33,799 nucleotides of DNA from an uncultured Lentisphaeria bacterium (GCA_964630195.1 CAZVSF010000002.1:1-33799); one strand, 5' to 3'; shown: positions 1,616-33,137, counted from the first letter of the stretch. The notes: generated by a model not told the origin, from the letters alone. Program-made: numbers and translations.

Positions 1616-1651
1616 GTAAAAGTAGTTTCCAGGAAATTTAAAGAGGATAAA

Positions 1652-2986: not shown

Positions 2987-3004
2987 GGTAGGGGATGTAT
3001 TCAT

Positions 3005-4513: not shown

Positions 4514-4519
4514 ATAACC

Positions 4520-7470: not shown

Positions 7471-7480
7471 GAGAAATCTT

Positions 7481-9031: not shown

Positions 9032-9032
9032 G

Positions 9033-9851: not shown

Positions 9852-9852
9852 G

Positions 9853-11262: not shown

Positions 11263-11292
11263 CCGACGTTGACCATTATCGGGAGGAAGAAA

Positions 11293-12987: not shown

Positions 12988-13061
12988 CAGGCAGCGTCTA
13001 GCTCAATCAATCGATTGTTTTACGACTATAGCGATTTGATGGAAGTCCCTCCAAGCTCATT

Positions 13062-15266: not shown

Positions 15267-15299
15267 TAAATTATTGTGAAAAGAGAAAAAGGAACAGTT

Positions 15300-16505: not shown

Positions 16506-16630
16506 TTCTGGATCACCGTTAAAAACCACAGGGCTGATACGTTTATAGGTGACATGCCTGGTAGAGTTGTTACATTATTTTTGTTTCGTTAATCAATCGG
16601 TCCAGGTGACCATTCATATAGGTAATTGTT

Positions 16631-17926
16631 ATGCAAACTGAACGTCTTCCCGCCTTCCATGTCCTGGCCAAACCCATTGGCCCCATCTGTAATCTGGACT
16701 GCAGCTACTGCTTCTATCTGGAAAAGGATCAACTCTATCCTGAAGTGAAGAATTTCAAAATGGAACCTGCTGTCCTTGAAACCTTTATTCGACAAAAAAT
16801 TGAAGGTCATAGCGTGGATACGGTCCATTTCACCTGGCAGGGTGGTGAACCTACCTTGTTAGGTGTTGACTATTTTAGGGAAGTCGTGCGTTTGCAGGAG
16901 AAGTACGCTGGGGGTAGGCGCATTGAAAATGGCTTTCAGACCAATGGCGTCCTGTTGAATGACGAGTGGTGTGAATTTTTCAAAAAGCACAACTTCCTGA
17001 TTGGGTTATCCATCGATGGTCCCGCAGAACTTCACGATATTTATCGGCTCAATAAGGGGGGCAGTGGGAGTTTCGACCAGGTCATGGACGGGCTGGCTTT
17101 GCTGAAAAAACATGGTGTCGAATACAATACCCTGACGGTGGTGAATGCCGGTAACCAGGCGCATCCAGATGAGATTTATGATTTTCTCAAATCCATAGGA
17201 AGTACCTATTGGCAGTTCATCCCCATTGTGGAACGGCTGCGCAAAGAAGATGGGATGTTGGCAGCCCCAGACGAAACGGGTGAGATACCCATGAGTGAAT
17301 GGTCTGTAGAGCCTGAGGCTTATGGTCATTTTCTGGAACACATTTTTCAACGGTGGGTCAGGGAAGATGTGGGACAGATATTTGTCCAACATTTTGAATC
17401 AGCTCTGGCCAATGAGTTGGAAATGCCAGCTGGTGTTTGCGTCTGGAATTCCACCTGTGGTTCGGCTCTGGCAATCGAGCATAATGGTGATGTCTTTCCC
17501 TGTGATCATTACGTTTTCCCACACTATAAATTGGGCAATATTAAAGAAATTCCTCTCGTAGAGATGATACATGATCCCATTCAAATTGAATTTGGGAATG
17601 ATAAGAAAGACAAGTTGCCACAAATATGTCTCGATTGCGAAGTTCTGGATCTCTGTCATGGTGAATGTCCCAAACATCGCTTCATGACGGGGGCGGATGG
17701 GGAGGTAGGACTCAATTATCTTTGTGACGGATATAAACATTTCTTCACAACGATCCGGCCCGAATTGGGTGTTATCGCAGAGTTGTTCGAATTGGGGAAA
17801 CCTGCAGAGAACATCAAGGAATGGATGAAGGAAAAGGATTTGGGGTTTCCTTCACTGAATGCGAAGCGAAATGAGCCCTGTCCCTGTGGCAGTGGTAAAA
17901 AATTCAAAGCATGTTGCGCCATCTAG
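16631..17926 (+). CDS. Anaerobic sulfatase-maturating enzyme (radical SAM/SPASM) with C-terminal SEC-C zinc-binding motif
   Basis: 431-aa ORF with no signal peptide. Radical-SAM CNLDCSYC (CX3CX2C, nt 16688-16711). GGEPTL motif. SPASM-type cysteines CVWNSTCGS...PCDHY and CLDCEVLDLCHGEC (CX2CX5CX3C). The last 18 aa, NEPCPCGSGKKFKACCAI (nt 17870-17923), match the SecA C-terminal SEC-C motif. Confidence 0.9.
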   Translation: MQTERLPAFHVLAKPIGPICNLDCSYCFYLEKDQLYPEVKNFKMEPAVLETFIRQKIEGHSVDTVHFTWQGGEPTLLGVDYFREVVRLQEKYAGGRRIENGFQTNGVLLNDEWCEFFKKHNFLIGLSIDGPAELHDIYRLNKGGSGSFDQVMDGLALLKKHGVEYNTLTVVNAGNQAHPDEIYDFLKSIGSTYWQFIPIVERLRKEDGMLAAPDETGEIPMSEWSVEPEAYGHFLEHIFQRWVREDVGQIFVQHFESALANELEMPAGVCVWNSTCGSALAIEHNGDVFPCDHYVFPHYKLGNIKEIPLVEMIHDPIQIEFGNDKKDKLPQICLDCEVLDLCHGECPKHRFMTGADGEVGLNYLCDGYKHFFTTIRPELGVIAELFELGKPAENIKEWMKEKDLGFPSLNAKRNEPCPCGSGKKFKACCAI

Positions 17927-18123
17927 ACGGTATGAGCGGTCTGAACCTATAATACAGGATCTGGCGTGGGAGTATAGGTGGTAATATTCTGCAACATACC
18001 ACATTGCCAATTCACCCCACCAGGTCTTGCCCTCTCACTATCAATTTTAGGGTCTTTGATCTTGAGATTCCCGGTATCTACAAACCTTATCAATCCTCGT
18101 ATGCTGAAATAGTAGAAATATCC

Positions 18124-18152
18124 TTGACATCCCTTTAACTCTCTTTTAAACT
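18124..18152 (+). promoter_or_regulatory. Candidate sigma70-type promoter TTGACA-17 nt-TAAACT for the TBDR operon
   Basis: Perfect -35 TTGACA at 18124-18129. After a 17-nt spacer, TAAACT at 18147-18152 matches TATAAT at 4 of 6 positions. It lies in the only long non-coding gap (17927-18312) upstream of the TBDR. The promoter type used by this lineage is unknown. Confidence 0.3.
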
Positions 18153-18157
18153 AAATG

Positions 18158-18191
18158 TGTCATACATCTTACTAATTATCTCCGTATGACA
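18158..18191. promoter_or_regulatory. 8-bp perfect inverted repeat TGTCATAC-N18-GTATGACA just downstream of the candidate -10 (operator-like)
   Basis: TGTCATAC at 18158-18165 and its reverse complement GTATGACA at 18184-18191. A third direct copy of GTCATACATC (18273-18282) duplicates 18159-18168. Confidence 0.35.
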
Positions 18192-18216
18192 GAATTTGAA
18201 AAAATCGGGAAGTATC

Positions 18217-18231
18217 GAATACATTGTATTC
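18217..18231. promoter_or_regulatory. Perfect 15-bp palindrome GAATACA-T-TGTATTC in the TBDR leader
   Basis: GAATACA at 18217-18223, centre T at 18224, TGTATTC at 18225-18231. Verified by reverse-complementing by hand. Confidence 0.3.
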
Positions 18232-18312
18232 TTTAGTATATGGCTGGAAGCTTTACTGTGGCGCAAAAATTCGTCATACATCATTCATATTTATGAAAAA
18301 GGGAGTACCTGC

Positions 18313-21243
18313 ATGATTGGGGAAACAAAGTGGATTAAGTATTCCATTGGGTTACTACTATTGATACCCATTCTGCTCGTGGCCGGGCAAGGCGGTAAGA
18401 TAGCTGGTCAGGTGACGGACGCACAAACAGGAGAACCGCTACCTGGGGCAAATGTTATGCTCACCCACCGATGGATCGACGGAGAAGAATCAACCCTTGA
18501 TGCCATTGTTGGTACTGCCACGGATGTAGATGGCCATTACTATCTACTCAATATTTATCCCGGCACCTACACCTTGCGGGTTGATTTCATAGGCATGTCC
18601 AGTAGTCGTGTAACCGAAATCGATGTTCTGGTTGATATGACCACCTTTATTGATGTTGCCCTGGAGGCAGCTTCACTTGAGGGGGAAGCTGTTGTTGTTG
18701 AATCCCAAAGAAAGAATACGGTTCAGACAGATCTCACTGCGACCAAGACGGTATATCAAGTATCGGATGTGCAGAGTATCGCTGGAGTCAGTGATATTGG
18801 TGACATTATCAATCTTCAGGCAGATGTGGTCGATGATCACTTCAGGGGCGGACGTACGGGCGAATCAAGCTATCTCCTCGGCGGTGGAACAATTGTGAAT
18901 CCTCTTAATAATTCCAAGGCTTTCAGTCCTATTGTGACCGGGCTCGAACAGGTTGAGGTCTATACCAGTGGTTTTAGTGCTGAATATGGAAATGCCCAAT
19001 CCGGAGTAATCAATATGGTTACCAAGGAGGGTAGAGAATCCTGGGAATCCCGGATCGAAGTTTCTATCACAGCTCCCTACTATAAGGTATGGGAAGAATT
19101 TTTCGATGAAGATAGTAACCGGACAGTTGAAGCTGGAAGCCCATACGATCGGAATAGTCTGGAATTCTATGACATTTTAATGGACACGAGCGAATGGTTG
19201 AAGGATAATCCTCAACAACCTGGTCGTGTCCTCTATGACCTTGGCTATGGATTTGGTGGGCAGTACTTACCTCCACGTACCACCTGGCCACCGAATCCCC
19301 TTGGTTATGCAGATTCTATCCAGATCGCTCGTCTGGGGCAGGTTAGTTGGATGCAATCTGTTCGAGATGTGGGTTTGCAATACGACGATACATTTGATAA
19401 TCGCCTGGACTTTTCTACAGGTGGACCGATCACCGATCATGTGAAGGGCTTTGTGGCGCTTCGTCAGAATACTTCATATACAAGGATTCCCACACCAACC
19501 CCAGATTTGGATCGCCAGCTGATGAGTAGTCTGGTCTATAAGCCCGACGCATCAAATAAATACAAACTTACCTGGAATTATAATACTTCAAAAGAGACTT
19601 ATTTTAATAGCTCTTATCGGTACTGGCTCTTTGATCCAACCCTATCTACAACACAGAGATTATCCACCTCTACACAGTTGGGGCTTGACTGGAATCATAT
19701 CTTCAACGCTTCTACCTTTGGACACATGAGAGTGAATACCCTGCAGATTGAGGATAAGGAATTGCTTAACCTGCTTGGCGAGGGACAATTAACCACAGAT
19801 TATTCCAAGAATTCCAATTGGGTCGATTACACAGGACCTTCAAACCATCGGGTTGGTCGATTGTCCAACGATAGTGGCAAGGACCAGACTCGAACCTATA
19901 CATTTCAGGGTGACCTTACTTCTCAGGTCAATAATTCCAATATGTTCAAGGTGGGCGCTCAGTTCAGCTATTATGATGTTTTTGTGGATCGCCTGTACAA
20001 TCGAGATGGAGATGCCGATATTCGTATTCTCAATTTCGAGGTGAATCCCTATGAAGGTGCCATCTTTGGCCAGGATAAAATGGAGTTTGAGGGAATGATC
20101 GCCAATATGGGATTAAGACTTGATTTTTATCAGTTGAACAAGGAGTTCTTTTCGGACATTTATGGTCCCTTAAGAAATCCCAATTATGATCCCACTTTAC
20201 CCTATCTGGAGCGGGGTCCCTACTATTCTCAGGATTTGGCAGCGCGTGAGAATACAAAATTATATGCCAGGTTACAGCCCAGGATAGGAGTGAGTTTTCC
20301 TGTGGATGAAACCACAGTTTTTCATTTGAATTACGGCACATTTTCACAGCGTCCCAGTTTCAACCAGCTCTTCTACAACCAGATCACCTTTAACAATGAG
20401 ATCGAGATCCTTGGAAATCCCCGCTTGAAACCTGAGGAGACCAATGCCTATGATATTGGTATCGTAAAAGGATTACCTGCTCTGGGACTGACCCTTGATA
20501 TCAGTGCCTATTACAAGGATGTTAAAAATCTCATTGAAACTGCCTATTACTATGATGAGCAGCAGGCCGTGTATCGCACCTATATCAATAAGGATTATGC
20601 AGATATAAAGGGATTCCATGTAAATCTGGAAAGGAGATCCGGTGCGCTACGTGGATACATGCGCTATAATTATGAGTCGGCCACTGGAAAAAGTAGTAAT
20701 GATCTGAATGCGCCCGTCACCTACTTTGAGATTGCTGACCCTGTATATGGACTGGCACAGCTCCCGGACCCTGCAGATGTCTATCTGGATTATGATCGCA
20801 CTCACAAGGCTGTATTCAATCTCAGATACAAGACACCGAAGACCTTTGGACCCAAAATAATGGGTGTGTTCCCGCTGGCCAAATTCAGTATCAGTGCTAC
20901 CTATAAATATTATACAGGTCGACCCTATACAGACCCAGAAACCAATCTGCTTTATACCGAGCGCACGCCTGATGAACGTGAAGTGCGGGCGAGATTGGAA
21001 AAGGAAGTGAATATTGGTGGCAATAAAACCACACTATATGTCGAAGGCTACAACCTTACCAATAATTATATCTGGTCATATGGTCGGGCGTTTGACAATC
21101 CTTATAATACACCGCGCTGGAAAACAGAACCTGAGAATATTCTGACCTATGAACTCTATGAGCCCTACATCTCAAGTCAGGATATATATCTACTCAGTAA
21201 TCAACCCATTCACTGGCGCTTTGGCCTCATTGTGAAATTCTAA
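18313..21243 (+). CDS. SusC-type TonB-dependent outer-membrane receptor (carboxypeptidase-regulatory-like N-domain + plug + barrel)
   Basis: The ORF track starts at TTG 18196. The in-frame ATG at 18313 is preceded by GGGAG (18300-18304) and gives signal MIGETKWIKYSIGLLLLIPILLVAGQ, for 976 aa. GKIAGQVTDAQTGEPLPGANVML is a CarboxypepD_reg-like domain. GEAVVVES is TonB-box-like. FRGGRTGESSYLLGGG is plug-like. Beta-strand-like alternation runs to the C-terminal ...FGLIVKF, with the terminal aromatic typical of OMPs. Confidence 0.85.
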   Translation: MIGETKWIKYSIGLLLLIPILLVAGQGGKIAGQVTDAQTGEPLPGANVMLTHRWIDGEESTLDAIVGTATDVDGHYYLLNIYPGTYTLRVDFIGMSSSRVTEIDVLVDMTTFIDVALEAASLEGEAVVVESQRKNTVQTDLTATKTVYQVSDVQSIAGVSDIGDIINLQADVVDDHFRGGRTGESSYLLGGGTIVNPLNNSKAFSPIVTGLEQVEVYTSGFSAEYGNAQSGVINMVTKEGRESWESRIEVSITAPYYKVWEEFFDEDSNRTVEAGSPYDRNSLEFYDILMDTSEWLKDNPQQPGRVLYDLGYGFGGQYLPPRTTWPPNPLGYADSIQIARLGQVSWMQSVRDVGLQYDDTFDNRLDFSTGGPITDHVKGFVALRQNTSYTRIPTPTPDLDRQLMSSLVYKPDASNKYKLTWNYNTSKETYFNSSYRYWLFDPTLSTTQRLSTSTQLGLDWNHIFNASTFGHMRVNTLQIEDKELLNLLGEGQLTTDYSKNSNWVDYTGPSNHRVGRLSNDSGKDQTRTYTFQGDLTSQVNNSNMFKVGAQFSYYDVFVDRLYNRDGDADIRILNFEVNPYEGAIFGQDKMEFEGMIANMGLRLDFYQLNKEFFSDIYGPLRNPNYDPTLPYLERGPYYSQDLAARENTKLYARLQPRIGVSFPVDETTVFHLNYGTFSQRPSFNQLFYNQITFNNEIEILGNPRLKPEETNAYDIGIVKGLPALGLTLDISAYYKDVKNLIETAYYYDEQQAVYRTYINKDYADIKGFHVNLERRSGALRGYMRYNYESATGKSSNDLNAPVTYFEIADPVYGLAQLPDPADVYLDYDRTHKAVFNLRYKTPKTFGPKIMGVFPLAKFSISATYKYYTGRPYTDPETNLLYTERTPDEREVRARLEKEVNIGGNKTTLYVEGYNLTNNYIWSYGRAFDNPYNTPRWKTEPENILTYELYEPYISSQDIYLLSNQPIHWRFGLIVKF

Positions 21244-21261
21244 GATGATCTCGGAGAATCC

Positions 21262-23562
21262 ATGAAAATCTTAACAAAAATACTTTATGCATCCCTGGTT
21301 TTGCTCATGGTTCAAACAAGTTTCGGGCAAATAAGAGAATATAGAATTCATGATCGGGGCATGCTGCACAACACGGTCTTTAATACAGGGGAGATCGGTC
21401 GAGCCTGGCAAACAGGGGAGGCTGGTAATTATACTTCTGTCCCGGTTTTTGAATGGCCGCCCTATTCCAAAACCATCATTGACGGTATCGAATATGACGG
21501 TCAGCACAACATTCTTGGTGCTGGTTTTTATATCGGGGCGAACCTTGCCAGTCAACCTGGAGAAGTCAATAGACTCTTTGCATTGTGTGGCGGGGTGGGT
21601 GCCAGCTCACCTGAAGTGTCTATCGGTCGCTGGTCCTTTCCACTCTATATGGAAGAGATTGAAAATTTTCCTCTTTTGGAGGATGGTACTTTAAATCTCG
21701 ATTATGATCCTAATGAAGCAGAGGAAATTATCCGAACTGCCTGGGCTTCATCCACAGGTATTACTGTTACCAGAACGTCGAGAGCCTGGAGTTATCCTGA
21801 TTATGACGACTTTATTATTTATGAATATGAGCTCGAATATACTGGCGATACAGATGGAAATCCTGCCACCATTGAACAAACAGAAGATCTGAAAGACGTC
21901 ATGGTTGCCTTGAATTATGGATTTGCGCCTTCAATGTACGGTTACCAGCGCCAGTACCTTGAATGGAAATACACAGGCGGTATCTATCGTGGTGACCAGA
22001 ATAATTTCTGGGATTCAGACTGGTGGTTGTCCTTTAATATGAATTTGAGAAATAATCTCAGTGATGCCAGTGGCGCCGGCAAACCAGAGCCCGATCCAGA
22101 TCTTTTCATGGAATTTGCCACAACAGGCCGGAATGGTGGCGCATTGGGATCGCCTCAAGCTCCTGGATATGCTGTCCTATTCTATGATACGACTCACCTG
22201 GCCTATGTTGTGCCTGAGGATCTGGATAGTCTGGGGCAAAATGATTCTGAAGTGCAGGCTGTCCTCAGGACTTCAACCCTGCTGTCTCTCGACGAGTACG
22301 ATGAAGTGGATATTTACCGCGAGAATGAAAGTGGGTCATTTACCTGGTATTATGAGCTTGATGGAAATCATCACGTGAAGCAACCCTGGTCCAATAAGGT
22401 ATCCACGGGGAATACCAACAGCCCAAAAATGATGTACGAAAAGGATCCCATCAATCCAACGACTCGTTGGAGCGGTGTCTATTCACCTGGAAGTACTGGC
22501 TGGCCAGAGTTGAAGGGAGATCATTGGCTGGGACGAGCAGCGTATCCTTACAGACAGAGTGCTGATGCAGGCATGAAACACCACACTTTTGGACCCTACA
22601 GTATGTCTATCGGCGACAAGATCGAATTCAGCTATGCCGAAGTCGTGGGGTATGGTGCCGAGCCAGGCAAACGTATCGAAGGTGGTCAGGTTATCAATCA
22701 ATGGGCTGCCACGCCGACATGGAATCGGGCCTATACCATTGATGGTCAATTAATGACCACTGCCTATCTGGATGATTTCGGATATCCCGACTATGTGAAT
22801 TCTGATGTGGTAACCGTTACGCAGGTGACAGAAAAAGCTTTTGAAGCCTATCTTGGAACTGCGCCATCTGTGCCTGTCTGGCCTGAAGACAACCCAAGGA
22901 ATGGGGCCTACACGGTTCCTCCTCCATATCCAGCACCTGTGATAAGTGTACTTAATTATGAGGGCGCCACGGTGCGACTCACCTGGCTCCCTGACCAGGA
23001 AGCATTTGAACACCCCTTGCTGAACTCTACACTGGATAAGTATTATGTATGGAGAGCTGCAGCAGGAATGGGACCCTGGACCCTGGTTGATAGTGTGATG
23101 GTGGGCGATCCCCTGAACAATGATGGACGTTATGAGGTCATCGATACTGAAGAAAGTTTTAAGGTGGGTGAGTATCGATATTATGCGGTGACATCAGTAG
23201 ATGACGCTGGCAAGCAGAGTGGTAAAAGTAATATCACACGATTCGGGAAAAATATCGCTGCTGTTGAGGAATTGGGTGATGTATACGTTGTACCAAACCC
23301 CTATCTGGCCAGCGCTGGATCATTCAGCGGCACAGATGAAGGCAAGATAGGGTTTTATGGATTACCAGCCCGCTGTACCATACAGATATACAGTTATGCC
23401 ATGCAGCTGGTGCGTACGATCGAGCATGACGAACAGGTATACTCCAATTTGAACTATCAAACGACACGTGTGGGCCAGGAAATGGCCTCCGGGATCTATT
23501 TCTACATAGTAACCACTCCGGAAGGCGATAGCTCAAACGGTAAATTTGTAATTGTGAAGTAG
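21262..23562 (+). CDS. Secreted 766-aa protein of unknown function in the SusD position; Fn3-like segment and divergent T9SS-like C-terminal domain
   Basis: Signal peptide MKILTKILYASLVLLMVQTSFGQ with no lipobox. There is an 18-nt gap after the TBDR. An Fn3-like stretch runs ATVRLTWLPD...YYVWRA...YRYYAVTSVDDAGKQS. The C-terminus (nt 23266-23559), VYVVPNPY...LPARCTIQIYSYAMQLVRTI...ASGIYFYIVT...GKFVIVK, is patterned like a T9SS/FlgD-Ig-type sorting domain. Confidence 0.7.
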   Translation: MKILTKILYASLVLLMVQTSFGQIREYRIHDRGMLHNTVFNTGEIGRAWQTGEAGNYTSVPVFEWPPYSKTIIDGIEYDGQHNILGAGFYIGANLASQPGEVNRLFALCGGVGASSPEVSIGRWSFPLYMEEIENFPLLEDGTLNLDYDPNEAEEIIRTAWASSTGITVTRTSRAWSYPDYDDFIIYEYELEYTGDTDGNPATIEQTEDLKDVMVALNYGFAPSMYGYQRQYLEWKYTGGIYRGDQNNFWDSDWWLSFNMNLRNNLSDASGAGKPEPDPDLFMEFATTGRNGGALGSPQAPGYAVLFYDTTHLAYVVPEDLDSLGQNDSEVQAVLRTSTLLSLDEYDEVDIYRENESGSFTWYYELDGNHHVKQPWSNKVSTGNTNSPKMMYEKDPINPTTRWSGVYSPGSTGWPELKGDHWLGRAAYPYRQSADAGMKHHTFGPYSMSIGDKIEFSYAEVVGYGAEPGKRIEGGQVINQWAATPTWNRAYTIDGQLMTTAYLDDFGYPDYVNSDVVTVTQVTEKAFEAYLGTAPSVPVWPEDNPRNGAYTVPPPYPAPVISVLNYEGATVRLTWLPDQEAFEHPLLNSTLDKYYVWRAAAGMGPWTLVDSVMVGDPLNNDGRYEVIDTEESFKVGEYRYYAVTSVDDAGKQSGKSNITRFGKNIAAVEELGDVYVVPNPYLASAGSFSGTDEGKIGFYGLPARCTIQIYSYAMQLVRTIEHDEQVYSNLNYQTTRVGQEMASGIYFYIVTTPEGDSSNGKFVIVK

Positions 23563-23572
23563 GAATGAGGCC

Positions 23573-24538
23573 ATGATGATAAAAAAAAGCATACAGTTGC
23601 TCTTACTCCTTCTTTTTGCAATGAATGTGCATGGGTTTGAAAAAGTGGGGGTTACATCCTTCCAGTTCTTGAAAATCTCGCCGGATCCAACCATTGCTTC
23701 CATGGGTGGGGCATATGCAGCCATATCCAGGGGTACTGAGAGTCTTTTTGGTAACCCTGCTGCTCTGGTTAACCAAACCGGATTTGGAACCTTTATTTCT
23801 CAGACTGACTATATGTTTGAAACCAAGCATACCAGCGTTGCGGCATCCTGGGGATTTGGCGATTTTGCAGTTGGTCTATATGGAATGTCAGTAGATTACG
23901 GGTCGATAGCCGTGACGGATATTGCCAGTCTGGGCTTTGTCGATGGTGTATTTAATCCGGGTCTAACCGGTGAATCCCTGACGCTGGGTGCCACAGACAT
24001 GGGTATTGGTTTTAGTCAGCAGCTTACAGACAAATTCTCCTATGGACTGGTGACCAAATATCTCATTGAGGATTTTTCGGTCGTCAGTGAAGAGCTTGTC
24101 GCCTGGGATCTTGGTGTGCTCTACAACTCAGGCTTTCGGACTGTGGTCCTGGCTGCAACGCTAAGGAATTTTGGTCCGCAGGTGAAATACGAAGAGCAGA
24201 GTTATCCCTTGCCTCAGACCATGAATATTGGTCTTTCCAGTCACCTCATGTCCGCCTCCGATCCTCTCCTTTTTAAAAGTGCCGAGCATGATCTTCTGCT
24301 CACAGTAGATCTTGTGCAGCCCCGGGATTATGCCCAACAATACAACCTGGGCGCTCAGTATGCATTTAAGGATCTCATCTTCGCCAGAACAGGCTATCGA
24401 TTGAATTACGATACCGAGGGTTTCAACTTTGGTCTGGGATTCAAATTAAAGAATGTCGCTTTGAATTATGGCTATAGCAGCTATGGTGAAAAATTCAGCG
24501 GTGTACATCGATTCAGTATCGGTTTTATTAATATTTAG
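23573..24538 (+). CDS. PorV/PorQ-family-like (FadL-fold) outer-membrane beta-barrel protein
   Basis: 321-aa ORF. Signal MMIKKSIQLLLLLLFAMNVHG. The mature N-terminus SFQFLKISPDPTIASMGGAYAAISRGTESLFGNPAAL matches the PorV/PorQ family N-terminal signature (FL.i....R..aMGGA......d.sa...NPAGL) as I recall it. Amphipathic beta-strand pattern throughout. Confidence 0.6.
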   Translation: MMIKKSIQLLLLLLFAMNVHGFEKVGVTSFQFLKISPDPTIASMGGAYAAISRGTESLFGNPAALVNQTGFGTFISQTDYMFETKHTSVAASWGFGDFAVGLYGMSVDYGSIAVTDIASLGFVDGVFNPGLTGESLTLGATDMGIGFSQQLTDKFSYGLVTKYLIEDFSVVSEELVAWDLGVLYNSGFRTVVLAATLRNFGPQVKYEEQSYPLPQTMNIGLSSHLMSASDPLLFKSAEHDLLLTVDLVQPRDYAQQYNLGAQYAFKDLIFARTGYRLNYDTEGFNFGLGFKLKNVALNYGYSSYGEKFSGVHRFSIGFINI

Positions 24539-24549
24539 GGAATGCCAGC

Positions 24550-26088
24550 ATGACACGTAAAAATTCATTTATTATGACAATTTTTCTGGTTCTGGCTATT
24601 CTCACGACGGTCCAGGCTCAGAACAGGGGAAATGTGCTTTCCTTTCAGGGCGTTGATAAAGCTTTGAGCTTTGCACCAGGATCCTTTGGGAGTGGGCTTG
24701 ATGGTATCTCAGACCTGGGTGGCTCGGCTTCCATATTCGCCAATCCAGCTGGCTTATCTGGTATAAAAGGTCTAACCATCAGTACTGGAATGACTTCGAT
24801 TGAAAACCAGTGGTGGGAGAATCAGCATTATCGCCCAAACAGACTCTTTGTAACATTGCCATTCTACCTGGAAGGGTTATACATTCCGGATACATCAGAT
24901 AATGGCCGTCTGGATTCTGATGTATTTTATGAATCACTCCTGGACACCTCATATCTGCTTACAGATCCCGAAATGGGCCTGGAGCACTTCTCTGAAGAAG
25001 CCGCAGATTGGAAACGAAAAGAATCGGCCAGTGGCTTAAGTCATTTTGGAGTGGCATTGCCAATTCGTGTCATGGGGAAGACCCTTACGCTGAGTGGGGG
25101 ATATGCTTCACTCCTGGACGGAATCAGCTATGATAGGAATAAAACATATCTGTCACCACATCCGGGATATTTGGAATATGCAATGCCAGCCATGGCGGAT
25201 GGGATGGATACGATCAGAATGGATTGGTACAATTTTGAGAGGTTACAGAAACTAAACCTCGGTTTGATCAGTTTTGGTGTAGGCTATGAAGCAACTGAGA
25301 ATATTCATGTCGGTCTGGCCCTTTCCATGTACTCTGGCAGCGCTGATGAACTTCAAACCCAGGATAAAGTAGGTTACTTCGACCTGATTGACCAAAATGA
25401 GTTTATCTGGTCCTATGATACCATGAATACCCAATATTCCGGCACTGCAGATTATTCAGGATCGGCATTGAAGCTTGGATTGATATTGGATTATGAGCAA
25501 TTCCGGATGGGTTTGTCATATACAACCGCAATGGATCTGACCAAAGAATGGAGCTATGAGCAAACATTTACCTATCTCCAGGGAGACACTTTACTAACCT
25601 CCAGTACCAGCACGGTCACTGGGAAGGATGTCATGACCATTCCAGCCAGCTATGGTGTGGGTGTCCAGCTGATGCCCACCGATAGATTCACTTTTCTGCT
25701 TAGCTATGAGCTGCATCCCTATGGAGATTCTGAAATTCCTCGTGATACTCTGGGGACCTTTGCTTCAGGTGATATGCAGCACTGGGTAGACCAATCCATT
25801 ATTCAATTTGGTGTCCGTTATCAATTACATAAAATGGTTCATCTGAATGCATTATATCGCTCAGTACCAATGAGTTACCTGCCAGATGGAGCAGCTGTTC
25901 AGTCCACGGGGCCAGAGGCTGTTTCGTACAGAGTTGGCGCTGAAATTGATCTTGGCATGCTGGGCGCGATCGACCTGGGAGCCAGCTTCCAGGACTTGAA
26001 ATATGAAGATATATATTATTCAAATACAAATTATGCCCGCGAGAAGGCAACTGTCTTCAATGTGAGCTATCAATTTTCCCTAAAATAA
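24550..26088 (+). CDS. Putative outer-membrane beta-barrel protein, distant PorV/FadL-like
   Basis: 512-aa ORF. Signal ...LAILTTVQAQ. Degenerate version of the upstream gene's signature (VLSFQGV...GGSASIFANPAGLSG). Alternating hydrophobic strands to the C-terminus (VFNVSYQFSLK). No other family recognised. Confidence 0.45.
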   Translation: MTRKNSFIMTIFLVLAILTTVQAQNRGNVLSFQGVDKALSFAPGSFGSGLDGISDLGGSASIFANPAGLSGIKGLTISTGMTSIENQWWENQHYRPNRLFVTLPFYLEGLYIPDTSDNGRLDSDVFYESLLDTSYLLTDPEMGLEHFSEEAADWKRKESASGLSHFGVALPIRVMGKTLTLSGGYASLLDGISYDRNKTYLSPHPGYLEYAMPAMADGMDTIRMDWYNFERLQKLNLGLISFGVGYEATENIHVGLALSMYSGSADELQTQDKVGYFDLIDQNEFIWSYDTMNTQYSGTADYSGSALKLGLILDYEQFRMGLSYTTAMDLTKEWSYEQTFTYLQGDTLLTSSTSTVTGKDVMTIPASYGVGVQLMPTDRFTFLLSYELHPYGDSEIPRDTLGTFASGDMQHWVDQSIIQFGVRYQLHKMVHLNALYRSVPMSYLPDGAAVQSTGPEAVSYRVGAEIDLGMLGAIDLGASFQDLKYEDIYYSNTNYAREKATVFNVSYQFSLK

Positions 26089-26097
26089 GGAGGAAGT

Positions 26098-27579
26098 ATG
26101 AAGAAACTGCAACTATCCCTTTTATCGCTACTTATTGCCGTAACGTCGTTCGCCCAGATCCCCTCACTCATAGAAGTTGGTGCGGATAACTGGGAAGCAT
26201 GGTATCAGGGTGATTTTAAGAATGTCCTGGGGTTTGTCGCCCAGGGTGCAGACACGGTATTGCTGACCTCATCCGGTTTTAGTTATACGACGGATGATAC
26301 TTTACCACTGGTGATAAATAGCCCGGTTGTCATCATGGCAGCCCCTGGACTGGCTGAAAAACCAATACTGTCGCATACCAACCCAGACACAAGTTCTTCC
26401 AGGGAGATCTTTCGTATTCTGGAAAGTGTAGAATTTAATGGTATTCATTTTAATGGTGCCCCGGATCAACCAAGAGGTGTGAAGTATGCCTTGCGGTATG
26501 GGGATTTTGAAGATGAGGCAACCGGACAGATCAATCTGGCTGAATCAGATATCAATATCACTCTAAAAGATTGTGATTTTGAGAATTTCCACTCTGAAGG
26601 TGATCAGGATAAACAGGGCAATGTCTTGTATTTTTTGAGGCCTCTCGATGTGACCAATGATCATATCCATGCGCATAATGTCATCATTGAAGGCTGTACT
26701 TTTACCGATATCGGTGATGAGGCTATCCGGATTTCCGAAGGTGAAAAATACCCCTTTGGCAGCATTGGGACTGTGGCCTATGATACATTGATCGTCAGGA
26801 ATTGTACTTTCGATGATGTGGATGCTGAATGTGTGCGTATCTATGGAGACACGGACACCAGCTTTGTTGGACCAACTTATGTGGATGGTCTAACTCTCAT
26901 CGAGAAGGTGACCGCAGTGAATTGTGCGCCACGCTTCATCTATGCCAAAAACTATCGGCAGACCATCCTTCGCGATGTGTTGGTCGCTAATGGACGCGAA
27001 CCCTCGATCAATCGCCAGGATAGAGGTGACTATGTCATGCACGTTCAGTTGAGCACATCCTATATCGCGAATGTCGACACATTTGATTTGACATTTACGA
27101 TGTATCAGGAAAATCGTGTTGTGGGTGGGAAGGGGGCTGATGTGGATGAAGCAACCGTGTATGGGTATGATCCCCAATTCACGGATGCCGCTAATGGAAA
27201 TTACGAGGTGAATTCACCCTACCTGTATAGTCGTGGTAGCGATGGAGGTTTCATTGGTGACCCACGTTGGGCTACGGCACCTCCACCCGTGGGAACAGCT
27301 CCAGAGACCAAACCTGTCGCTTTTACGCTGGAACAAAGCTATCCAAATCCATTCAATCCGAGTACCAGGATCGATTATACAATAGAACGACCCGATTTCA
27401 CCACGCTGGTTGTTTACAATGTGCTGGGTCAGGTTGTTTCTACACTCAAAGATGAGTTCATGTGGGAAGGTTCCTACAGTGTTGTATTTGATGCATCAGA
27501 ACTGGCGGGAGGAATTTATTTTTATGAATTGCGCCAGGGTGAGAATGCTCAAATTAATAAAATGATATTACTTAAATAG
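26098..27579 (+). CDS. Secreted right-handed beta-helix protein (single module) with T9SS C-terminal sorting domain
   Basis: 493-aa ORF. Signal ...IAVTSFAQ. Beta-helix rungs IIEGCTFTDIGDEAIRISEG and LIVRNCTFDDVDAECVRIYG. Cap motif DPQFTDAANGNYEV...GSDGGFIGDPRWAT is shared with the modules of the next gene. CTD (nt 27319-27576): LEQSYPNPFNPSTRIDY...GGIYFYELRQG...NKMILLK, Por_Secre_tail type. Confidence 0.78.
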   Translation: MKKLQLSLLSLLIAVTSFAQIPSLIEVGADNWEAWYQGDFKNVLGFVAQGADTVLLTSSGFSYTTDDTLPLVINSPVVIMAAPGLAEKPILSHTNPDTSSSREIFRILESVEFNGIHFNGAPDQPRGVKYALRYGDFEDEATGQINLAESDINITLKDCDFENFHSEGDQDKQGNVLYFLRPLDVTNDHIHAHNVIIEGCTFTDIGDEAIRISEGEKYPFGSIGTVAYDTLIVRNCTFDDVDAECVRIYGDTDTSFVGPTYVDGLTLIEKVTAVNCAPRFIYAKNYRQTILRDVLVANGREPSINRQDRGDYVMHVQLSTSYIANVDTFDLTFTMYQENRVVGGKGADVDEATVYGYDPQFTDAANGNYEVNSPYLYSRGSDGGFIGDPRWATAPPPVGTAPETKPVAFTLEQSYPNPFNPSTRIDYTIERPDFTTLVVYNVLGQVVSTLKDEFMWEGSYSVVFDASELAGGIYFYELRQGENAQINKMILLK

Positions 27580-27594
27580 GAAACGGGAGGTAAC

Positions 27595-30500
27595 ATGAAA
27601 AAACTACTCATTGCCGTATGTCTGCTGACATTGGCATTTGGTACGCTGCAAGCTGCAGTTATTCCAGTAGTTAATGATTCAGATTCCTCTCTGGTTACAG
27701 CATATAACAATGCCGTTGCCGGGGATATTCTGGAATTAACTGTGGATGGTGTGTATTTATCCAGGGCGCAGATCGTCATCGATAAGGATATCACCATTCG
27801 TGCAGCCGCAGGTCTGGCAAATCCACCAGTTTACAAATATGTAGGCACTTCAACTGGCGCCTATATGTTTAAAGGTGTCGGATCACCCCGCATCAACATA
27901 TCTGGTATTGAATTCGACGGTGACGGACAAGCTGAAGGCGGCGCTGCATTGGCCAAATACTTTTTTATTGTTCGCAACGATGACACAACCGCCACACTGG
28001 ATCTCTTTATTGATAATGTCTATGTACATGATTATAACGAGAAGATGATCAAGTTTTATGGTGATGCCGGTGTGGATTCCATGGTCGTGACCAACTCCAT
28101 GTTCGATACGACACCTAAAGAGGGAATTACCCTCTATTCAGGTTCATCAAGCGATCCAATGGCAAAATATGCCTACGTTGAGATCTCAAACACCACGATA
28201 GCCAATACTGGTAGGGAAGCTGTCAAGAACCAGACAAGCCCAGGTGGTACAGTTGTTCTTGATAGGTTGACACTTGACGGTTGTGGTAATAGCGGCAACA
28301 AATCCATGATTTATTTCCGCGATGTTGATGATGTTACTGTCAAGAATAGCATCTTTTATAATAGCACAAATGCTGATGCTGGTGAAGAGTTTGCTGACAT
28401 GGCCACCTCAAACAACGTGTTTCATAACAATGTTGTCTGGGATGTTGTGAACACAGATGTAAGCAATGCTGTGGTCACGGATACCCTTCATGTCGATCCA
28501 ATGTTCTTGGACGCTGCAGCAGGTGACTATACAGTTCTCAATATGGATCTCTACACATTCGCTGATGATGGTGGATCTGTAGGCGATTCATACTGGATCC
28601 CCAATCGCGAACCTGCTGTTTATCAGATCTCGAGTGCTGATACCAATGCACTGGCTGACGCTGTGAACGATGCTATCGCCGGTGATGCTTTTGTACTTGT
28701 GGATGAAGGTCCATACCTGAACACAAGTCAGATGGTTATCGAAGAAGATATCGCCATCATGGCCTGGGACCTTTTACCCACGAAACCTGTTGTGAAATAT
28801 GTAGGTACTTCAACTGGTGCTTATATGTTCAAGGGTGTTGGTTCACCACATATCATGATTCATGGTATCGAGTTTGATGGTGACGGACAAGCTGAAGGTG
28901 GCGCTGCTCTGGCCAAATACTTCTTTATCGTTCGGAATGATGACCCGACTGCCACACTGGATCTCTTTATTGATGATGTCTATGTACATGATTACAACGA
29001 AAAGATGATCAAGTTCTATGGTGATGCAGGTGTTGATTCAATGGTTGTAACCAATTCAATATTCGATACTGGTCCTAAAGAAGGAATCACGCTCTACTCA
29101 GGATCATCATCTGATCCAGCTGCGGTCTATAGCTATGTAGAGATCTCAAATACAACTATTACCAACACTGGCAGGGAAGCTATCAAGAACCAGACAAGTA
29201 CTGGTGGTACAGTTGTTCTAGATAGATTGACCATTGATGGTTGTGGAAACAGTGGCAACAAATCAATGATCTATTTCCGTGATGCTGATGATGTTACTGT
29301 GAAAAACAGCATTTTCTCAAACAGCACCAACGCTGATGCTGGTGAAGAGTTTGCCGATATGGCAACATCAAACAATGCATTCCATAACAATGTTGTTTGG
29401 GATGTAGTGAACACTGAAGTCAGCAATGCTGTTGTGACTGATACGCTGCATGCTGATCCAATGTATGCAGATGCTGCTAATGGTGATTTCACCATCGCCA
29501 ACGCCGACCTATTCACATTTGCTGATGATGGCGGGGCAGTAGGAGATGGACGCTGGGCACCAGAAATGGTTGTTGAAGTCACTGAAGTGACAAATGATCT
29601 TCCAAATGCATTGGCAGATGCTGTTGACGCCTCTGAACCTGGTGACATTCTCGTATTGGTTTCAGAAGGTGAATATGTCAGTGATGATGATATTGAAGTT
29701 CCTCATGATCTGACCATTATGGGTTCATATGAATTGCCAACCAGACCTGTAGTCAAATACAATGGTGGCTCAAGTTCATATTTCTTAAGACCTGAAGCCA
29801 ATGTACGTCTTGCTGTTTCAAATCTTGAATTTGATGGTAACAGACCTGACGGCAGTCTCGTGAAATACTTTGTCCGTATCGACAACTCAGATCCTACGGC
29901 TCTGACGAGTCTGATCGTAGACAATGTGCTTGCACATGATTTTGCTGACAAGGTTGTGAAAGCCTATGGCAACTCTGGTATCGATTCAGTATTGATAACC
30001 AATAGTGTTTTTCATAGTGGCGGCTCAGAGGGTATCTGTCTGTATCAAGGATCCTCTTCTGCAGCGCCTACGCCCATCAATTATGCTGAGATCTCGAACT
30101 GTACACTTTATGACATCGAGCGTGAAGCCATCAAATCTGAGCTCTATGCTGATTCTCAGATCCTCATAGATCGTGTTACAGTCTACAATTGTGGTAGCGC
30201 TCAAAATAAGCCAATGCTGCGCTTCCGTGCTGTAACAAATGTTGAAGTCAAGAACAGCATCTTTGCACACAATGATAATACAGACACAGGTGAAGATTTT
30301 GCCGATTTCGGTGAAGCCGCCAACCTGTTCCATCACAATGCTGTCTGGGACATGCTGAATTATGAAACGGGTTCAGCTACGCCTACTGATACGGTACAGG
30401 TTGACCCAATGTTTGCTGATGCAGCCAATGCTGATTTCACAATTCCTGAAGATTCACCCCTGTACTCCTTTGCTGATGATGGTGGATCCATTGGTGATAC

Positions 30501-33084: not shown

Positions 33085-33100
33085 AAAGAAGGAAATTGAT

Positions 33101-33137
33101 CTGCGGGGTGATTCGTCACCCCGCAGACCTCCTTTTT
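33101..33137 (+). terminator. Rho-independent-type terminator hairpin after the giant gene
   Basis: Perfect 11-bp stem CTGCGGGGTGA (33101-33111) paired with TCACCCCGCAG (33116-33126), with loop TTCG. It is followed by acctccTTTTT (T-run 33133-33137). Confidence 0.7.

Follow-up and report, generated by a model that had tools for sequence, protein, structure and literature searches.

In the SusC/SusD (RagA/RagB) pair, the PUL core of Bacteroidota, the gene for a large TonB-dependent receptor extended N-terminally by CarboxypepD_reg stands directly before that of a large partner exposed on the surface, the two genes lie among those of sugar enzymes, a genome can have several such paralogous pairs in differing enzyme contexts, and receptor and partner co-diverge; the cassette described here is the same in each of these respects. 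A TonB-dependent receptor with a co-encoded surface substrate-binding partner is likewise found in the bipartite TbpA/TbpB and HpuA/HpuB systems of Proteobacteria, where, different from the cassette, the partners are lipoproteins, the substrates are iron or haem carriers, and no T9SS or PorV-like barrel takes part.

Barrels that hold a surface protein are also known. PorZ and PorU keep their C-terminal domains (CTDs), which dock on PorQ and PorV, respectively (PMC10202324). The genes for type B T9SS cargo are clustered with those for the cognate PorP/SprF barrels, which are their anchors (PMC10202324); the type B CTD is probably uncleaved, the barrel acting as carrier and then as anchor (PMC10202324, PMC10994853), and on leaving the translocon cargo is attached to loops of its carrier barrel (PMC10994853). 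In the BAM complex of Bacteroidota, the surface partner BamH has a conserved N-terminus that is held by BamG, wedged into the barrel wall (PMC12578637). The cassette shares with PorZ-PorQ and PorU-PorV of Porphyromonas gingivalis the combination of a T9SS CTD protein with a PorV/PorQ-family barrel, and with SprB-SprF of Flavobacterium johnsoniae a cargo gene adjoining a dedicated PorV-like barrel gene; known type B cargo, however, are adhesins, not partners of nutrient importers. No published description of such a cassette was found in the literature.

Layout of the locus

Gene content, family assignments and operon layout were computed from the window (the whole stretch of DNA analysed, 33,799 nt), as were synteny across phyla and domain-wise co-divergence from related loci. 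The features are as follows.

44-17926, +: upstream enzyme block (Pfam matches), including seven sulfatases
6238-7470 and 15276-16505, +: two alginate-lyase-family genes (PF05426; Pfam)
8997-9851, +: 284-aa ORF without family assignment
11269-12987, +: pectate-lyase-like gene (Pfam)
13062-15266, +: heparinase II/III-like gene (Pfam)
16631-17926, +: radical-SAM sulfatase maturase (Pfam)
17927-18312, +: intergenic region 5' of G1, 386 nt, the sole long gap in this part of the window
18313-21243, +: G1, 976-aa TonB-dependent receptor with N-terminal CarboxypepD_reg
21262-23562, +: G2, secreted protein (766 aa) from a large family, conserved but unnamed
aa 1-22 of G2: signal peptide
aa 23-62 of G2: N-terminal segment, conserved, unmodelled
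21448-22896 (aa ~63-545 of G2): N-domain, beta-rich
22927-23256 (aa ~556-665 of G2): Fn3-like domain
23284-23559 (aa ~675-766 of G2): PorZ-like T9SS CTD
23573-24538, +: G3, 321-aa PorV/PorQ-family outer-membrane barrel
24550-26088, +: G4, 512-aa FadL/Toluene_X-family barrel
26098-27579, +: G5, 493 aa, beta-helix fold with partial DUF5123 and a canonical type A T9SS CTD
27595-33084, +: G6, 1829 aa, three tandem DUF4957/DUF5123 beta-helix modules, InlB B-repeats, canonical type A CTD
33100-33127, +: intrinsic-terminator-like hairpin and T-run (12-bp stem, 8 G-C pairs)

G1 to G6 form a six-gene unit on the + strand (18313-33084) situated 3' of the seven sulfatases, four lyase-like genes and the sulfatase maturase. 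The spacing of 18, 10 and 11 nt given for G1 to G4 in the sequence-only reading was reproduced exactly by the ORF coordinates. The same reading had linked these genes to T9SS cargo immediately downstream, and this was borne out: G5 and G6, directly 3' of the four, carry canonical Por_Secre_tail CTDs (Pfam), are co-stranded with gaps of 9-18 nt throughout the unit, and are followed by the hairpin, a strong terminator at which the unit ends; a DUF5123-type CTD protein of the G5/G6 type lies directly after the cassette in 46 of 61 related (close) loci, an incomplete association that also counts against the function proposed below. The 386-nt region 5' of G1 is likely the promoter and regulatory region of the unit; matches in a promoter search of this region were no better than chance, and the promoter was therefore left unassigned. 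Because the window contains no T9SS core genes, the presence of a T9SS was deduced from the cargo tails.

G5 reaches 33.1 bits with PF18962 (cut-off, 27), and 34.2 bits with DUF5123, under the cut-off of 35.1. The beta-helix module of G6, with a DNA repeat period of 960/951 nt, is a relative of a PL6 alginate lyase's C-terminal half, matching residues 435-682 of BcAlyPL6 (PDB 7dmk; E 2e-14). None of the proteins of the upstream block (44-17926) has a T9SS tail, and two of its sulfatases give weak, sub-threshold TAT-signal matches, which suggests that the upstream sulfatases and lyases work in the periplasm or cytoplasm.

The receptor, G2 and the two barrels

The layout of SusC that had been read from G1 was largely recovered: CarboxypepD_reg (PF13620) covers residues 30-118 (56 bits; cut-off, 32.3), the TonB_dep_Rec barrel (PF00593) covers residues 411-915 (84.5 bits; cut-off, 27), and the motif GEAVVVES and the C-terminal F are both present, but Pfam Plug gave no score at E ≤ 0.1, the plug region (residues 202-258) being visible solely through other TonB-dependent-receptor models. 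The label "SusC-type" was not retained. Membership of the SusC/RagA family was considered and rejected in spite of the SusC-like layout, as TIGR04056 (the SusC/RagA model) had no match at E ≤ 0.1; no PDB sequence relative of G1 was significant either, SusC/RagA chains included. The receptors paired with remote G2 subfamilies (see below) match TIGR04056 partially (positions 2 to ~350 only, 39-76 bits; cut-off, 368).

G2 had been called an ORFan, which does not hold: 662 of 8000 scored candidates were significant matches, the best 120 of the 662 being full-length with 56-85% identity, and 1460 clusters were matched in a 50%-identity library. The family (47-85% identical) ranges over Fidelibacterota (Marinimicrobia), Ignavibacteriota, Calditrichota and KSB1, and remote relatives extend to candidate division WOR-3, which is outside the FCB group in the NCBI taxonomy, so that the superfamily reaches beyond FCB. 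Other statements on this protein stood. It has a type-I signal without lipobox (signal peptide found, no Cys), and it is not SusD-like and belongs to no characterised family: SusD families gave no match at E ≤ 0.1, Pfam gave no family match and NCBIfam weak CTD matches only, and a profile search of PDB with G2 found nothing. The AlphaFold models (pLDDT 81 and 80) are beta-rich, not of the all-alpha TPR fold of the lipoprotein SusD, and the Fn3-like segment was recovered as a domain at residues ~556-665 with Foldseek FN3 matches (E 8e-7). Residues 23-62 are among the most conserved (~70% identity) and have pLDDT <50 in the monomer, a combination typical of a partner-binding segment; a highly conserved, unmodelled N-terminal segment is also a likeness to BamG-BamH. 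Sequence islands kept superfamily-wide are WSYPDYDDFIIYEY, FGPY..GD, Fn3 and the CTD, and they persist whether a subfamily sits in lyase loci or in GH10/GH43 xylan loci, two settings with unrelated enzymes. Mean identity is 59% for G2 versus 52% for its receptor; such conservation is unusual for a SusD-like binding protein and fits an enzyme too.

The divergent T9SS-type CTD noted in G2 was detected by TIGR04183 (E 0.01) and by the C-terminus of the PorZ model (E 0.003), all matches in the window protein being below the curated cut-offs. Among 53 members of the G2 family, the PorZ C-terminus was matched by 52 (best E 3e-10), TIGR04183 by 51, PorU by 27, and Pfam CHU_C (type B) by 44, all sub-cut-off, so that the class of this CTD is ambiguous, the matches being split among type A, PorZ/PorU and type B models. 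The tail resembles the uncleaved tail of PorZ. The PorZ model did not match the ordinary CTDs of G5 and G6.

G3 and G4 were assigned as outer-membrane barrels by HMM family membership, as had been anticipated. G3 scores 150 bits with NF033709 (PorV/PorQ family; cut-off, 90); among equivalog models PorQ is the best (79 bits, versus 48 bits for PorV; both below cut-offs), and PorP/SprF, the barrel family of type B cargo, is weak (E 0.012; 15 bits against a cut-off of 90.6). G4 scores 35.0 bits with PF03349 (cut-off, 29.7), and the PorV-type N-terminal signature previously seen in both proteins was supported by family-versus-family hhalign (98% probability, 77 columns); G4 is a barrel of the FadL/PorV superfamily. 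Its weak BamG match (44 bits; cut-off, 250) and FadL family recall BamG-BamH, whereas a BamA context is missing.

Gene order and co-divergence in related loci

The synteny comparison covered 80 genome loci, drawn from Fidelibacterota, Ignavibacteriota, Calditrichota, KSB1 and unclassified MAGs. A TonB-dependent receptor lies directly 5' of the G2 homologue in 68 of the 69 loci with room for it, and in the close loci a PorV-family gene lies 3' in 74/76 and a FadL-like gene (G4) is present in 64/65. The remote set consists of seven G2 relatives in nine loci (L081-L089) with ~23-27% identity over long alignments; a PorV-like gene is directly 3' in all nine, and a CarboxypepD_reg receptor is 5' in all six with a readable upstream gene (five distinct proteins). 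The association of G2 homologues with TonB-dependent receptors, on which the sequence-only reading depended, is therefore upheld in close and remote loci alike. Three genes make up the conserved core (receptor, G2-like protein and PorV-like barrel), and the obligatory third gene distinguishes the cassette from SusC/SusD. Of the five distinct remote loci long enough to show it, one (L085) has the FadL-like fourth gene, which is thus limited to the close family plus at least this locus. The order receptor, G2-like protein, PorV-like barrel is kept at 10-100-nt spacing down to ~23-27% G2 identity, across phyla and substrate contexts; remote loci contain, for example, MFS with GH43, GH10, GH3 and GH116, LacI with GH2, or GHL10 cargo. 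Several MAGs have two paralogous cassettes, one pair on a single 66-kb contig. The three-gene core, present here in a Marinimicrobia-type bacterium, recurs across several little-studied phyla.

Domain-wise co-divergence was computed over 57 loci. The G2 CTD correlates with G3 (r 0.83) above the G1 barrel (r 0.59), the N-domain with the G1 barrel (r 0.87) above G3 (r 0.56), and segment 23-62 with the G1 barrel (r 0.76) above G3 (r 0.27), the three contrasts being positive in 300/300 taxon bootstraps; a simple gradient of linkage or recombination over the operon would yield the identical pattern, as the CTD adjoins G3 and the N-domain adjoins G1 on the DNA. G4 and G3 co-diverge (r 0.87). For the N-terminal segment of G2, the co-diverging barrel is that of G1 and not G4, in which the segment differs from BamG-BamH.

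Proposed function and its alternatives

We consider it moderately probable that G1 to G6 are one operon, work as outlined here, and encode the outer-membrane "front end" of a locus devoted to a polysaccharide that is sulfated and rich in uronates. We infer that G2 is exported by the T9SS, that its CTD remains on G3 and that G2 contacts G1, and we likewise infer the kind of substrate. The PorZ-like CTD of G2 would be left uncut and stay on G3, proposed as its dedicated carrier and anchor, which would tether G2 to the cell surface after the model of PorQ-PorZ and of PorP/SprF holding type B cargo. With the Fn3 domain as spacer, the N-domain and the N-terminal segment would be seated on the extracellular face of G1 and act as its substrate-binding partner, as SusD does for SusC. 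G5 and G6, with PL6-related beta-helices and type A CTDs, would be displayed on the surface for capture or nicking of the polymer; the role of G4 is a guess, and this second PorV-like barrel may carry G5/G6 or pair with G3. Oligosaccharides would enter through G1, powered by TonB, and degradation would be finished by the upstream sulfatases and lyases. The cassette probably fills the role of SusC/SusD in Bacteroidetes; the earlier suggestion of an alternative to SusCD is supported by a G2 that is not SusD-like, by the conserved receptor synteny and by the barrel families of G3 and G4.

It is rather unlikely that G2 is instead a surface-tethered enzyme, either a polysaccharide lyase or a glycoside hydrolase of a new family, that cuts the polymer beside the receptor, in which case the cassette would still be an uptake module. 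All Foldseek matches of the N-domain are carbohydrate-active enzymes (GH94, GH116 and GH65 phosphorylases/hydrolases, ExoMA2, heparinase II and a polysaccharide lyase), and the family is very highly conserved, more so than its receptor, with many invariant Arg, Asp, Glu, His, Tyr, Trp, Lys, Asn and Gln residues. These matches are weak, however (E 1e-4 at best, TM ~0.25), and the PDB profile search was empty. The catalytic domains of these enzyme families are largely helical and the N-domain model is mostly beta-strand, so the matches would fall on beta-sandwich accessory parts, not catalytic domains. The superfamily-wide islands span unrelated enzyme contexts, which is easier to reconcile with a core for structure or partner binding than with a single catalytic chemistry.

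Co-regulation without a physical complex, with G2 as ordinary T9SS cargo (released or LPS-anchored), G3 and G4 as FadL-type channels or general T9SS helpers, and G1 importing alone, is distinctly improbable in our view. Many TonB-dependent receptors act singly, G4 reaches the FadL/Toluene_X cut-off, and linkage by itself can yield the co-divergence pattern, but co-regulation by itself rarely preserves gene order and adjacency to such low identity and across phyla and substrate contexts, each paralogous cassette has its own PorV-like gene, which indicates cognate pairing rather than a general helper, and the CTD of G2 is PorZ-like while those of the neighbouring cargo are not. A T9SS attachment or envelope-biogenesis module (PorZ/PorQ-like LPS delivery, or BamG/BamH-like) in place of nutrient uptake would agree with the PorZ- and PorU-like CTD of G2, the PorQ-like G3 and the weak BamG match of G4; yet we regard it as very improbable, the PorZ/PorU, PorQ and BamG matches being far under the equivalog cut-offs of 220-260 bits, and the G2 body being unrelated to PorZ/PorU, its N-domain differing from the double beta-propeller of PorZ. 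A TonB-dependent receptor is always part of the cassette, and G2 and G3 are encoded beside it in catabolic loci, in several paralogous copies per genome, with LacI regulators, MFS/TRAP transporters and kinases, a pattern at odds with a single housekeeping unit.

The front-end reading is also favoured by the flanks of 13 related loci, where T9SS cargo is abundant (31 of 81 proteins), together with PL6 (7), alginate lyase (5), heparinase II/III (4), SDR (6), PfkB (2) and DctM/MFS transporters.

Gene layout of the locus and its receptor

The plus strand carries every large ORF of the window, and the following features were assigned.

44-17926, plus strand, upstream enzyme block (Pfam-type family matches)
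386 nt, intergenic gap between the enzyme block and G1
18313-21243, plus strand, G1, TonB-dependent receptor
21262-23562, plus strand, G2, secreted protein of 766 aa
23573-24538, plus strand, G3, PorV/PorQ-family barrel
24550-26088, plus strand, G4, FadL/Toluene_X-family barrel
26098-27579, plus strand, G5, beta-helix protein
27595-33084, plus strand, G6, beta-helix protein
33100-33127, hairpin (12-bp stem) with a T-run, 3' of G6

The enzyme block (44-17926) encodes seven sulfatases and two alginate-lyase-family proteins (PF05426), together with a pectate-lyase-like protein, a heparinase II/III-like protein, a putative 284-aa ORF and a radical-SAM/SPASM sulfatase maturase. The six genes G1-G6 are separated by successive gaps of 18, 10, 11, 9 and 15 nt, and the ORF map of the window reproduced the coordinates and spacings that the sequence-only reading had given for G1-G4. 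The matches of a promoter scan of the window were at chance level; thus, no promoter is claimed.

SusC/SusD pairs are the marker by which polysaccharide utilization loci are found and counted, and the strict criterion (PULDB) is a susC/susD tandem adjoining carbohydrate-active enzymes. No large ORF of the window had a SusD-family match in Pfam. The locus was therefore rejected as a strict polysaccharide utilization locus, since the enzymes are present but susD and a SusC-family gene are not, and it is similar to such loci in logic only.

Within the enzyme block, the sulfatase maturase (16631-17926; Radical_SAM and SPASM) carries a C-terminal SEC-C motif (PF02810; CPCGSGKKFKACC), which looks like an unusual C-terminal addition for the anaerobic sulfatase-maturating enzyme class. 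The putative 284-aa ORF (8997-9851; GTG start) lies between two sulfatase genes, overlaps the upstream one by 35 nt and had no Pfam match.

G1 belongs to the TonB-dependent receptor superfamily; its TonB_dep_Rec barrel (PF00593, residues 411-915) scored 84.5 bits against a cut-off of 27, and its CarboxypepD_reg domain scored 56 bits. The Pfam Plug model (PF07715) gave no match to G1 at E<=0.1; the plug positions of several NCBIfam receptor models aligned to G1 residues 202-258, and PF07715 was present in the partner receptors of three loci with remote G2 relatives (L083, L084 and L087) and weak in that of another (L082). Membership of the SusC/RagA family was defined as a score of at least 368 bits against NCBIfam TIGR04056 (OMP_RagA_SusC). 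G1 had no match to this model at E<=0.1, and the partner receptors of the remote subfamilies scored 39-76 bits (cut-off 368) over 110-356 N-terminal model positions only. The PDB chains include many SusC/RagA structures; a phmmer search of all PDB chains with G1 returned nothing at E<=0.001; at E<=10, short stretches (30 residues) of RNA-binding protein 8A were the only matches, and these were spurious (E 0.006-0.04). Because of the missing TIGR04056 match, the lack of a significant PDB relative and the N-terminal-only matches of the remote partners, G1 was ruled out as a member of the SusC/RagA family. The earlier term "SusC-type" is thus right as to layout but wrong as to family. No SusD-family gene lies directly downstream of G1, the next gene being G2, which has no SusD match in Pfam.

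The G2 family, its C-terminal domain and the neighbouring barrels

G2 had been described as an ORFan, which was not borne out: a search of 5.8 billion proteins, with 8000 candidates scored, gave 662 significant matches, of which the top 120 were full-length with 56-85% identity. In a 50%-identity library, 1460 clusters matched at E<=1e-3; of these, 253 remained when the limit was tightened to E<=1e-10, and 45 at E<=1e-30. Matches with a named source came from Marinimicrobia/Fidelibacterota, Calditrichota, KSB1 and Melioribacteraceae, and almost all were labelled "hypothetical". A cultivated carrier was sought in the match names; the best matches listed were all from MAGs or metagenome contigs, and the closest loci were those of Neomarinimicrobiota MAGs (84-85% G2 identity). 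The bacterium of the window is best assigned to Fidelibacterota (Marinimicrobia). The remote members (650-850 aa) have common co-linear islands, namely the WSYPDYDDFIIYEY hairpin region, the FGPY..GD region, and the Fn3 domain with the T9SS C-terminal domain (CTD). One remote subfamily comes from outside the FCB group as NCBI defines it, in candidate division WOR-3 (Caldifarciminota).

The body of G2 was covered by no model of Pfam or NCBIfam, and the family profile found nothing in the PDB at E<=1. The criteria for a SusD/RagB protein were a match to one of PF07980, PF12741, PF12771 and PF14322 together with a TPR-like fold that is all-alpha. G2 had no match to the Pfam SusD/RagB families at E<=0.1, and its signal peptide (MKILTKILYASLVLLMVQTSFG, followed by Q) has no Cys and hence lacks the lipobox of SusD/RagB; the first mature residue, Gln23, was invariant in 53 homologues. 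AlphaFold2 models were built with an alignment of 53 sequences for the full protein (pLDDT 81, pTM 0.83) and for residues 23-545 (pLDDT 80, pTM 0.87). A large, mostly beta-strand N-domain (about 63-545), an Fn3-like domain (about 556-665) and a beta-sandwich CTD (about 675-766) were predicted. As modelled, this architecture rules out a SusD-like fold, and the earlier judgement that G2 is not SusD-like agrees with the Pfam result, the signal peptide and the beta-rich models. Foldseek with the full model matched only the Fn3 domain and the CTD; with the N-domain alone, it gave weak matches to ExoMA2, GH94, GH116, GH65 and heparinase II (E 1e-4 at best, TM about 0.25). Matches of this strength (E>=1e-4) were too weak for a carbohydrate-active fold family or activity to be accepted for the N-domain; the model hints at a carbohydrate-related beta-sandwich.

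Two stretches of G2 stand out. Residues 23-62 (21328-21447) are among the best conserved (about 70% identity), yet their pLDDT is below 50; they may be a partner-insertion segment. Residues about 312-365 (22195-22356) are the sole poorly conserved stretch (8-33% column identity); the window protein is extended here relative to most homologues (766 aa vs about 742-748 aa in total), and the stretch is thus probably a variable surface loop.

Judged by profile comparison, the CTD of G2 is atypical. In the window protein it scored 15.8 bits against TIGR04183 (cut-off 23; E 0.01), had no Pfam match and was matched better by the C-terminus of the PorZ model (E 0.003) than by the generic type A model (E 0.01); its sequence shows PNP, GIYFY and GKFVIVK motifs. 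Among 53 CTDs of the family, 52 matched PorZ (best 3e-10), 51 matched TIGR04183 at E<=0.01 (best 5e-8), 44 matched type B PF13585 (CHU_C) at E<=0.01 (best 1.3e-4, sub-threshold), 27 matched the PorU model and six matched PF18962. Window G2 had no CHU_C match at E<=0.1, and the ordinary CTDs of G5 and G6 had no match to the PorZ model. The identification of G2 as PorZ itself was rejected because only the CTD matches. The CTDs of PorZ and PorU are uncleaved and stay bound to PorQ and PorV, respectively, and type B cargo genes cluster with the cognate PorP/SprF barrels that are their anchors (PMC10202324); the loops of carrier barrels bind cargo as it exits the translocon (PMC10994853). By analogy, a gene for a PorQ-like barrel (G3) directly after a gene with a PorZ-like CTD (G2) fits the pattern of a retained CTD and its carrier.

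G3 was assigned to the PorV/PorQ family with NF033709 (150.2 bits, cut-off 90; residues 28-318, model positions 2-324 of 326). The PorQ model (79 bits) scored higher than the PorV model (48 bits); G3 was accepted as neither PorV proper nor PorQ proper, both scores being under the cut-offs (NF033710, 250; NF033711, 220). G4 was assigned to the FadL/Toluene_X family with PF03349 (35.0 bits, cut-off 29.7), the match spanning residues 243-432 only, and was rejected as BamG (43.9 bits, NF053685 cut-off 250). The family profiles of G4 and G3 could be aligned in their N-terminal PorV signature (77 columns, hhalign probability 98%); the sequence-only reading was correct in seeing a PorV-type motif at the start of both barrels. 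Sequence searches of the PDB found no real relative of G3 or G4.

G5 and G6 have canonical type A T9SS CTDs and DUF4957/DUF5123 beta-helix modules, and within the 33.8-kb window these CTDs point to a T9SS in this organism. Against the PDB, G5 gave chance matches only; the first module of G6 resembled the C-terminal half of the PL6 alginate lyase BcAlyPL6 (PDB 7dmk; E 2e-14, chain residues 435-682), and this match suggests that it may be a binding module. G6 (27595-33084) consists of three tandem modules of about 320 aa each (DNA period 960/951 nt), each a DUF4957 and DUF5123 beta-helix; the first two copies share 83% identity over 300 nt (27825-28124 vs 28785-29084).

Conservation and co-divergence of the cassette

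The genome collection contained 319 loci encoding a G2 relative; the best 80 of 319 were kept and searched by tblastn with the window proteins, and loci with room to judge were used as denominators. Among these best 80, a G1-like receptor was directly upstream of the G2 homologue in 68/69 loci, a G3-like gene directly downstream in 74/76, a G4-like gene next after it in 64/65, and a G5/G6-like beta-helix protein with a CTD after the G4-like gene in 46/61. The remote set consisted of seven G2 relatives (about 23-27% identity over long alignments) at nine loci. A PorV-like gene was directly downstream in all nine, and all six loci with a readable upstream gene (five distinct proteins) had a CarboxypepD_reg receptor homologous to G1; the pairing of G2 with a TonB-dependent receptor, as first read in the window, therefore recurs in both sets. 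A FadL-like fourth gene was found at one remote locus only (L085). Taken together, the close and remote synteny define a conserved general core of three genes, which encode the receptor, a G2-family protein and a PorV-like barrel; this core follows the logic of the susC/susD tandem. One remote context was a xylan-type set (MFS, GH43, GH10, PfkB, GH3 and GH116), another had LacI upstream and GH2 downstream, and another had GHL10 and other CTD cargo.

Several single MAGs have a pair of paralogous cassettes (L036 and L070, L015 and L066, L013 and L068, L002 and L009), whose G2 proteins are about 60% and about 48% identical to that of the window; L036 and L070 are on contig CAZCJL010000025.1, and one paralogous pair is on a single 66-kb contig. 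This suggests duplication and divergence, as in susC/susD paralogues. At two loci, a further receptor homologue, 24-30% identical to G1, is encoded near the main cassette on the opposite (minus) strand (L044:2246-5857 and L056:3-2998). It is preceded in L044 by a PorV-family homologue (27%), with no G2-like gene between, and adjoined in L056 by a CTD-bearing ORF; these may be variant arrangements. On a TARA Oceans contig (L086:6351-7721), the triplet is followed by GWxTD-domain and DUF6785 proteins and no sugar enzymes, and some cassettes need not be related to glycans.

For co-divergence, pairwise protein identities were correlated over 57 loci with all four genes. The coefficient was 0.90 for G1-G2, 0.87 for G3-G4 and about 0.65 for the four cross pairs.

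Correlation (r) of parts of G2 with the G1 barrel and with G3
G2 CTD: G1 barrel 0.59; G3 0.83
G2 N-domain: G1 barrel 0.87; G3 0.56
G2 segment 23-62: G1 barrel 0.76; G3 0.27

The contrasts between G3 and the G1 barrel for the three parts were positive in 300/300 taxon bootstraps, and a weaker contrast (G2 CTD with G4 vs the G1 barrel) was positive in 99%. This pattern is consistent with a G2 whose CTD cooperates with G3/G4 and whose N-terminal part cooperates with the receptor barrel, and a recombination gradient along the operon would give the same pattern, since the CTD of G2 adjoins G3 on the DNA and the N-domain adjoins G1.

Proposed role and substrate context

On the computed evidence, namely gene content, family assignments, operon layout, synteny and co-divergence, we lean, with modest confidence, towards a G2 that is tethered to the cell surface via G3 and acts as the substrate-binding partner of G1 in SusD-free uptake. 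G2 would be exported by Sec and the T9SS, and G3 would carry it out and hold its retained CTD, with the Fn3 domain as a spacer; G4 may have a part in this as well. Both the N-domain and the conserved segment at the N-terminus would be seated on G1 and serve as its substrate-binding partner. The polymer would be captured or nicked at the surface by G5 and G6, oligosaccharides would be imported via G1, and degradation would be finished inside the cell envelope by the CTD-less sulfatases and lyases encoded upstream.

G2 might instead be a tethered enzyme; the Foldseek likenesses of its N-domain include glycoside hydrolase families, at a level too weak to assign an activity, and we regard this as unlikely. 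That the genes are co-regulated and form no complex, with the correlations then due to the recombination gradient, seems to us somewhat less likely again, the synteny extending to the remote relatives. A T9SS or envelope-biogenesis module, of which the PorZ-like CTD and PorQ-like barrel are reminiscent, is improbable beside the polysaccharide-degrading enzymes of the locus. Returning to the tethered binding partner, a broader claim is that the cassette is a widespread SusD-free glycan-uptake machine, made of a TonB-dependent transporter and an extracellular substrate-binding partner of a new family, and that polysaccharide loci are generally organised around the three-gene core in Fidelibacterota (Marinimicrobia), Ignavibacteriota, Calditrichota, KSB1 and WOR-3, like those around susC/susD in Bacteroidota proper; this we advance tentatively, with slightly more doubt than belief.

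The TonB-dependent receptor, the T9SS CTD and the PorV/FadL barrels are known parts, and two-part receptors are a known idea; what is new is the partner family and its apparent mode of anchoring. Searching papers in full text, with targeted reading, turned up no account of a cassette that combines a receptor with a CTD protein and a PorV-like barrel; a 2026 review of bacterial glycoside transporters does not mention these phyla or the T9SS, and the receptors discussed in the Caldithrix genome paper are vitamin receptors only. The near-restriction of SusC/SusD to Bacteroidota has left glycan uptake largely undescribed in the sister phyla, among them Marinimicrobia, which are abundant in the sea, and Calditrichota, Ignavibacteriota and KSB1, which live in sediments. 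If the proposal is true, the conserved triplet would serve as a simple marker by which genomes of these phyla could be screened for such loci, a T9SS protein-barrel tether would replace the lipid anchor in a new design of two-part TonB-dependent importer, and many unexplained PorV/PorQ paralogues would gain a physiological role.

As for the substrate, 81 flanking proteins of 13 related loci were scanned.

Families among 81 flanking proteins
T9SS CTD: 31
DUF5123: 20
Beta_helix: 14
Chondroitinase_B (PL6): 7
Short-chain dehydrogenase: 6
Alginate_lyase: 5
Heparinase II/III: 4
DctM: 3
MFS: 3
PfkB: 2

Such a gene set is typical for alginate and other polyuronates. Across the best 80 of 319 loci, a single sulfatase homologue (>=150 aligned residues) was found near the cassettes, and sulfatases, being almost absent from related loci, were rejected as part of the conserved unit. 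From the polyuronate-type flanks and the sulfatases almost unique to its own version, the window probably targets a sulfated, uronate-containing glycan. In L003 (139-3432), the closest Neomarinimicrobiota relative, an NRPS-like gene (Condensation, AMP-binding and PP-binding) is upstream of the cassette and there is no sulfatase block; thus, the block is taken to be a recent neighbour of the cassette in the lineage of the window.
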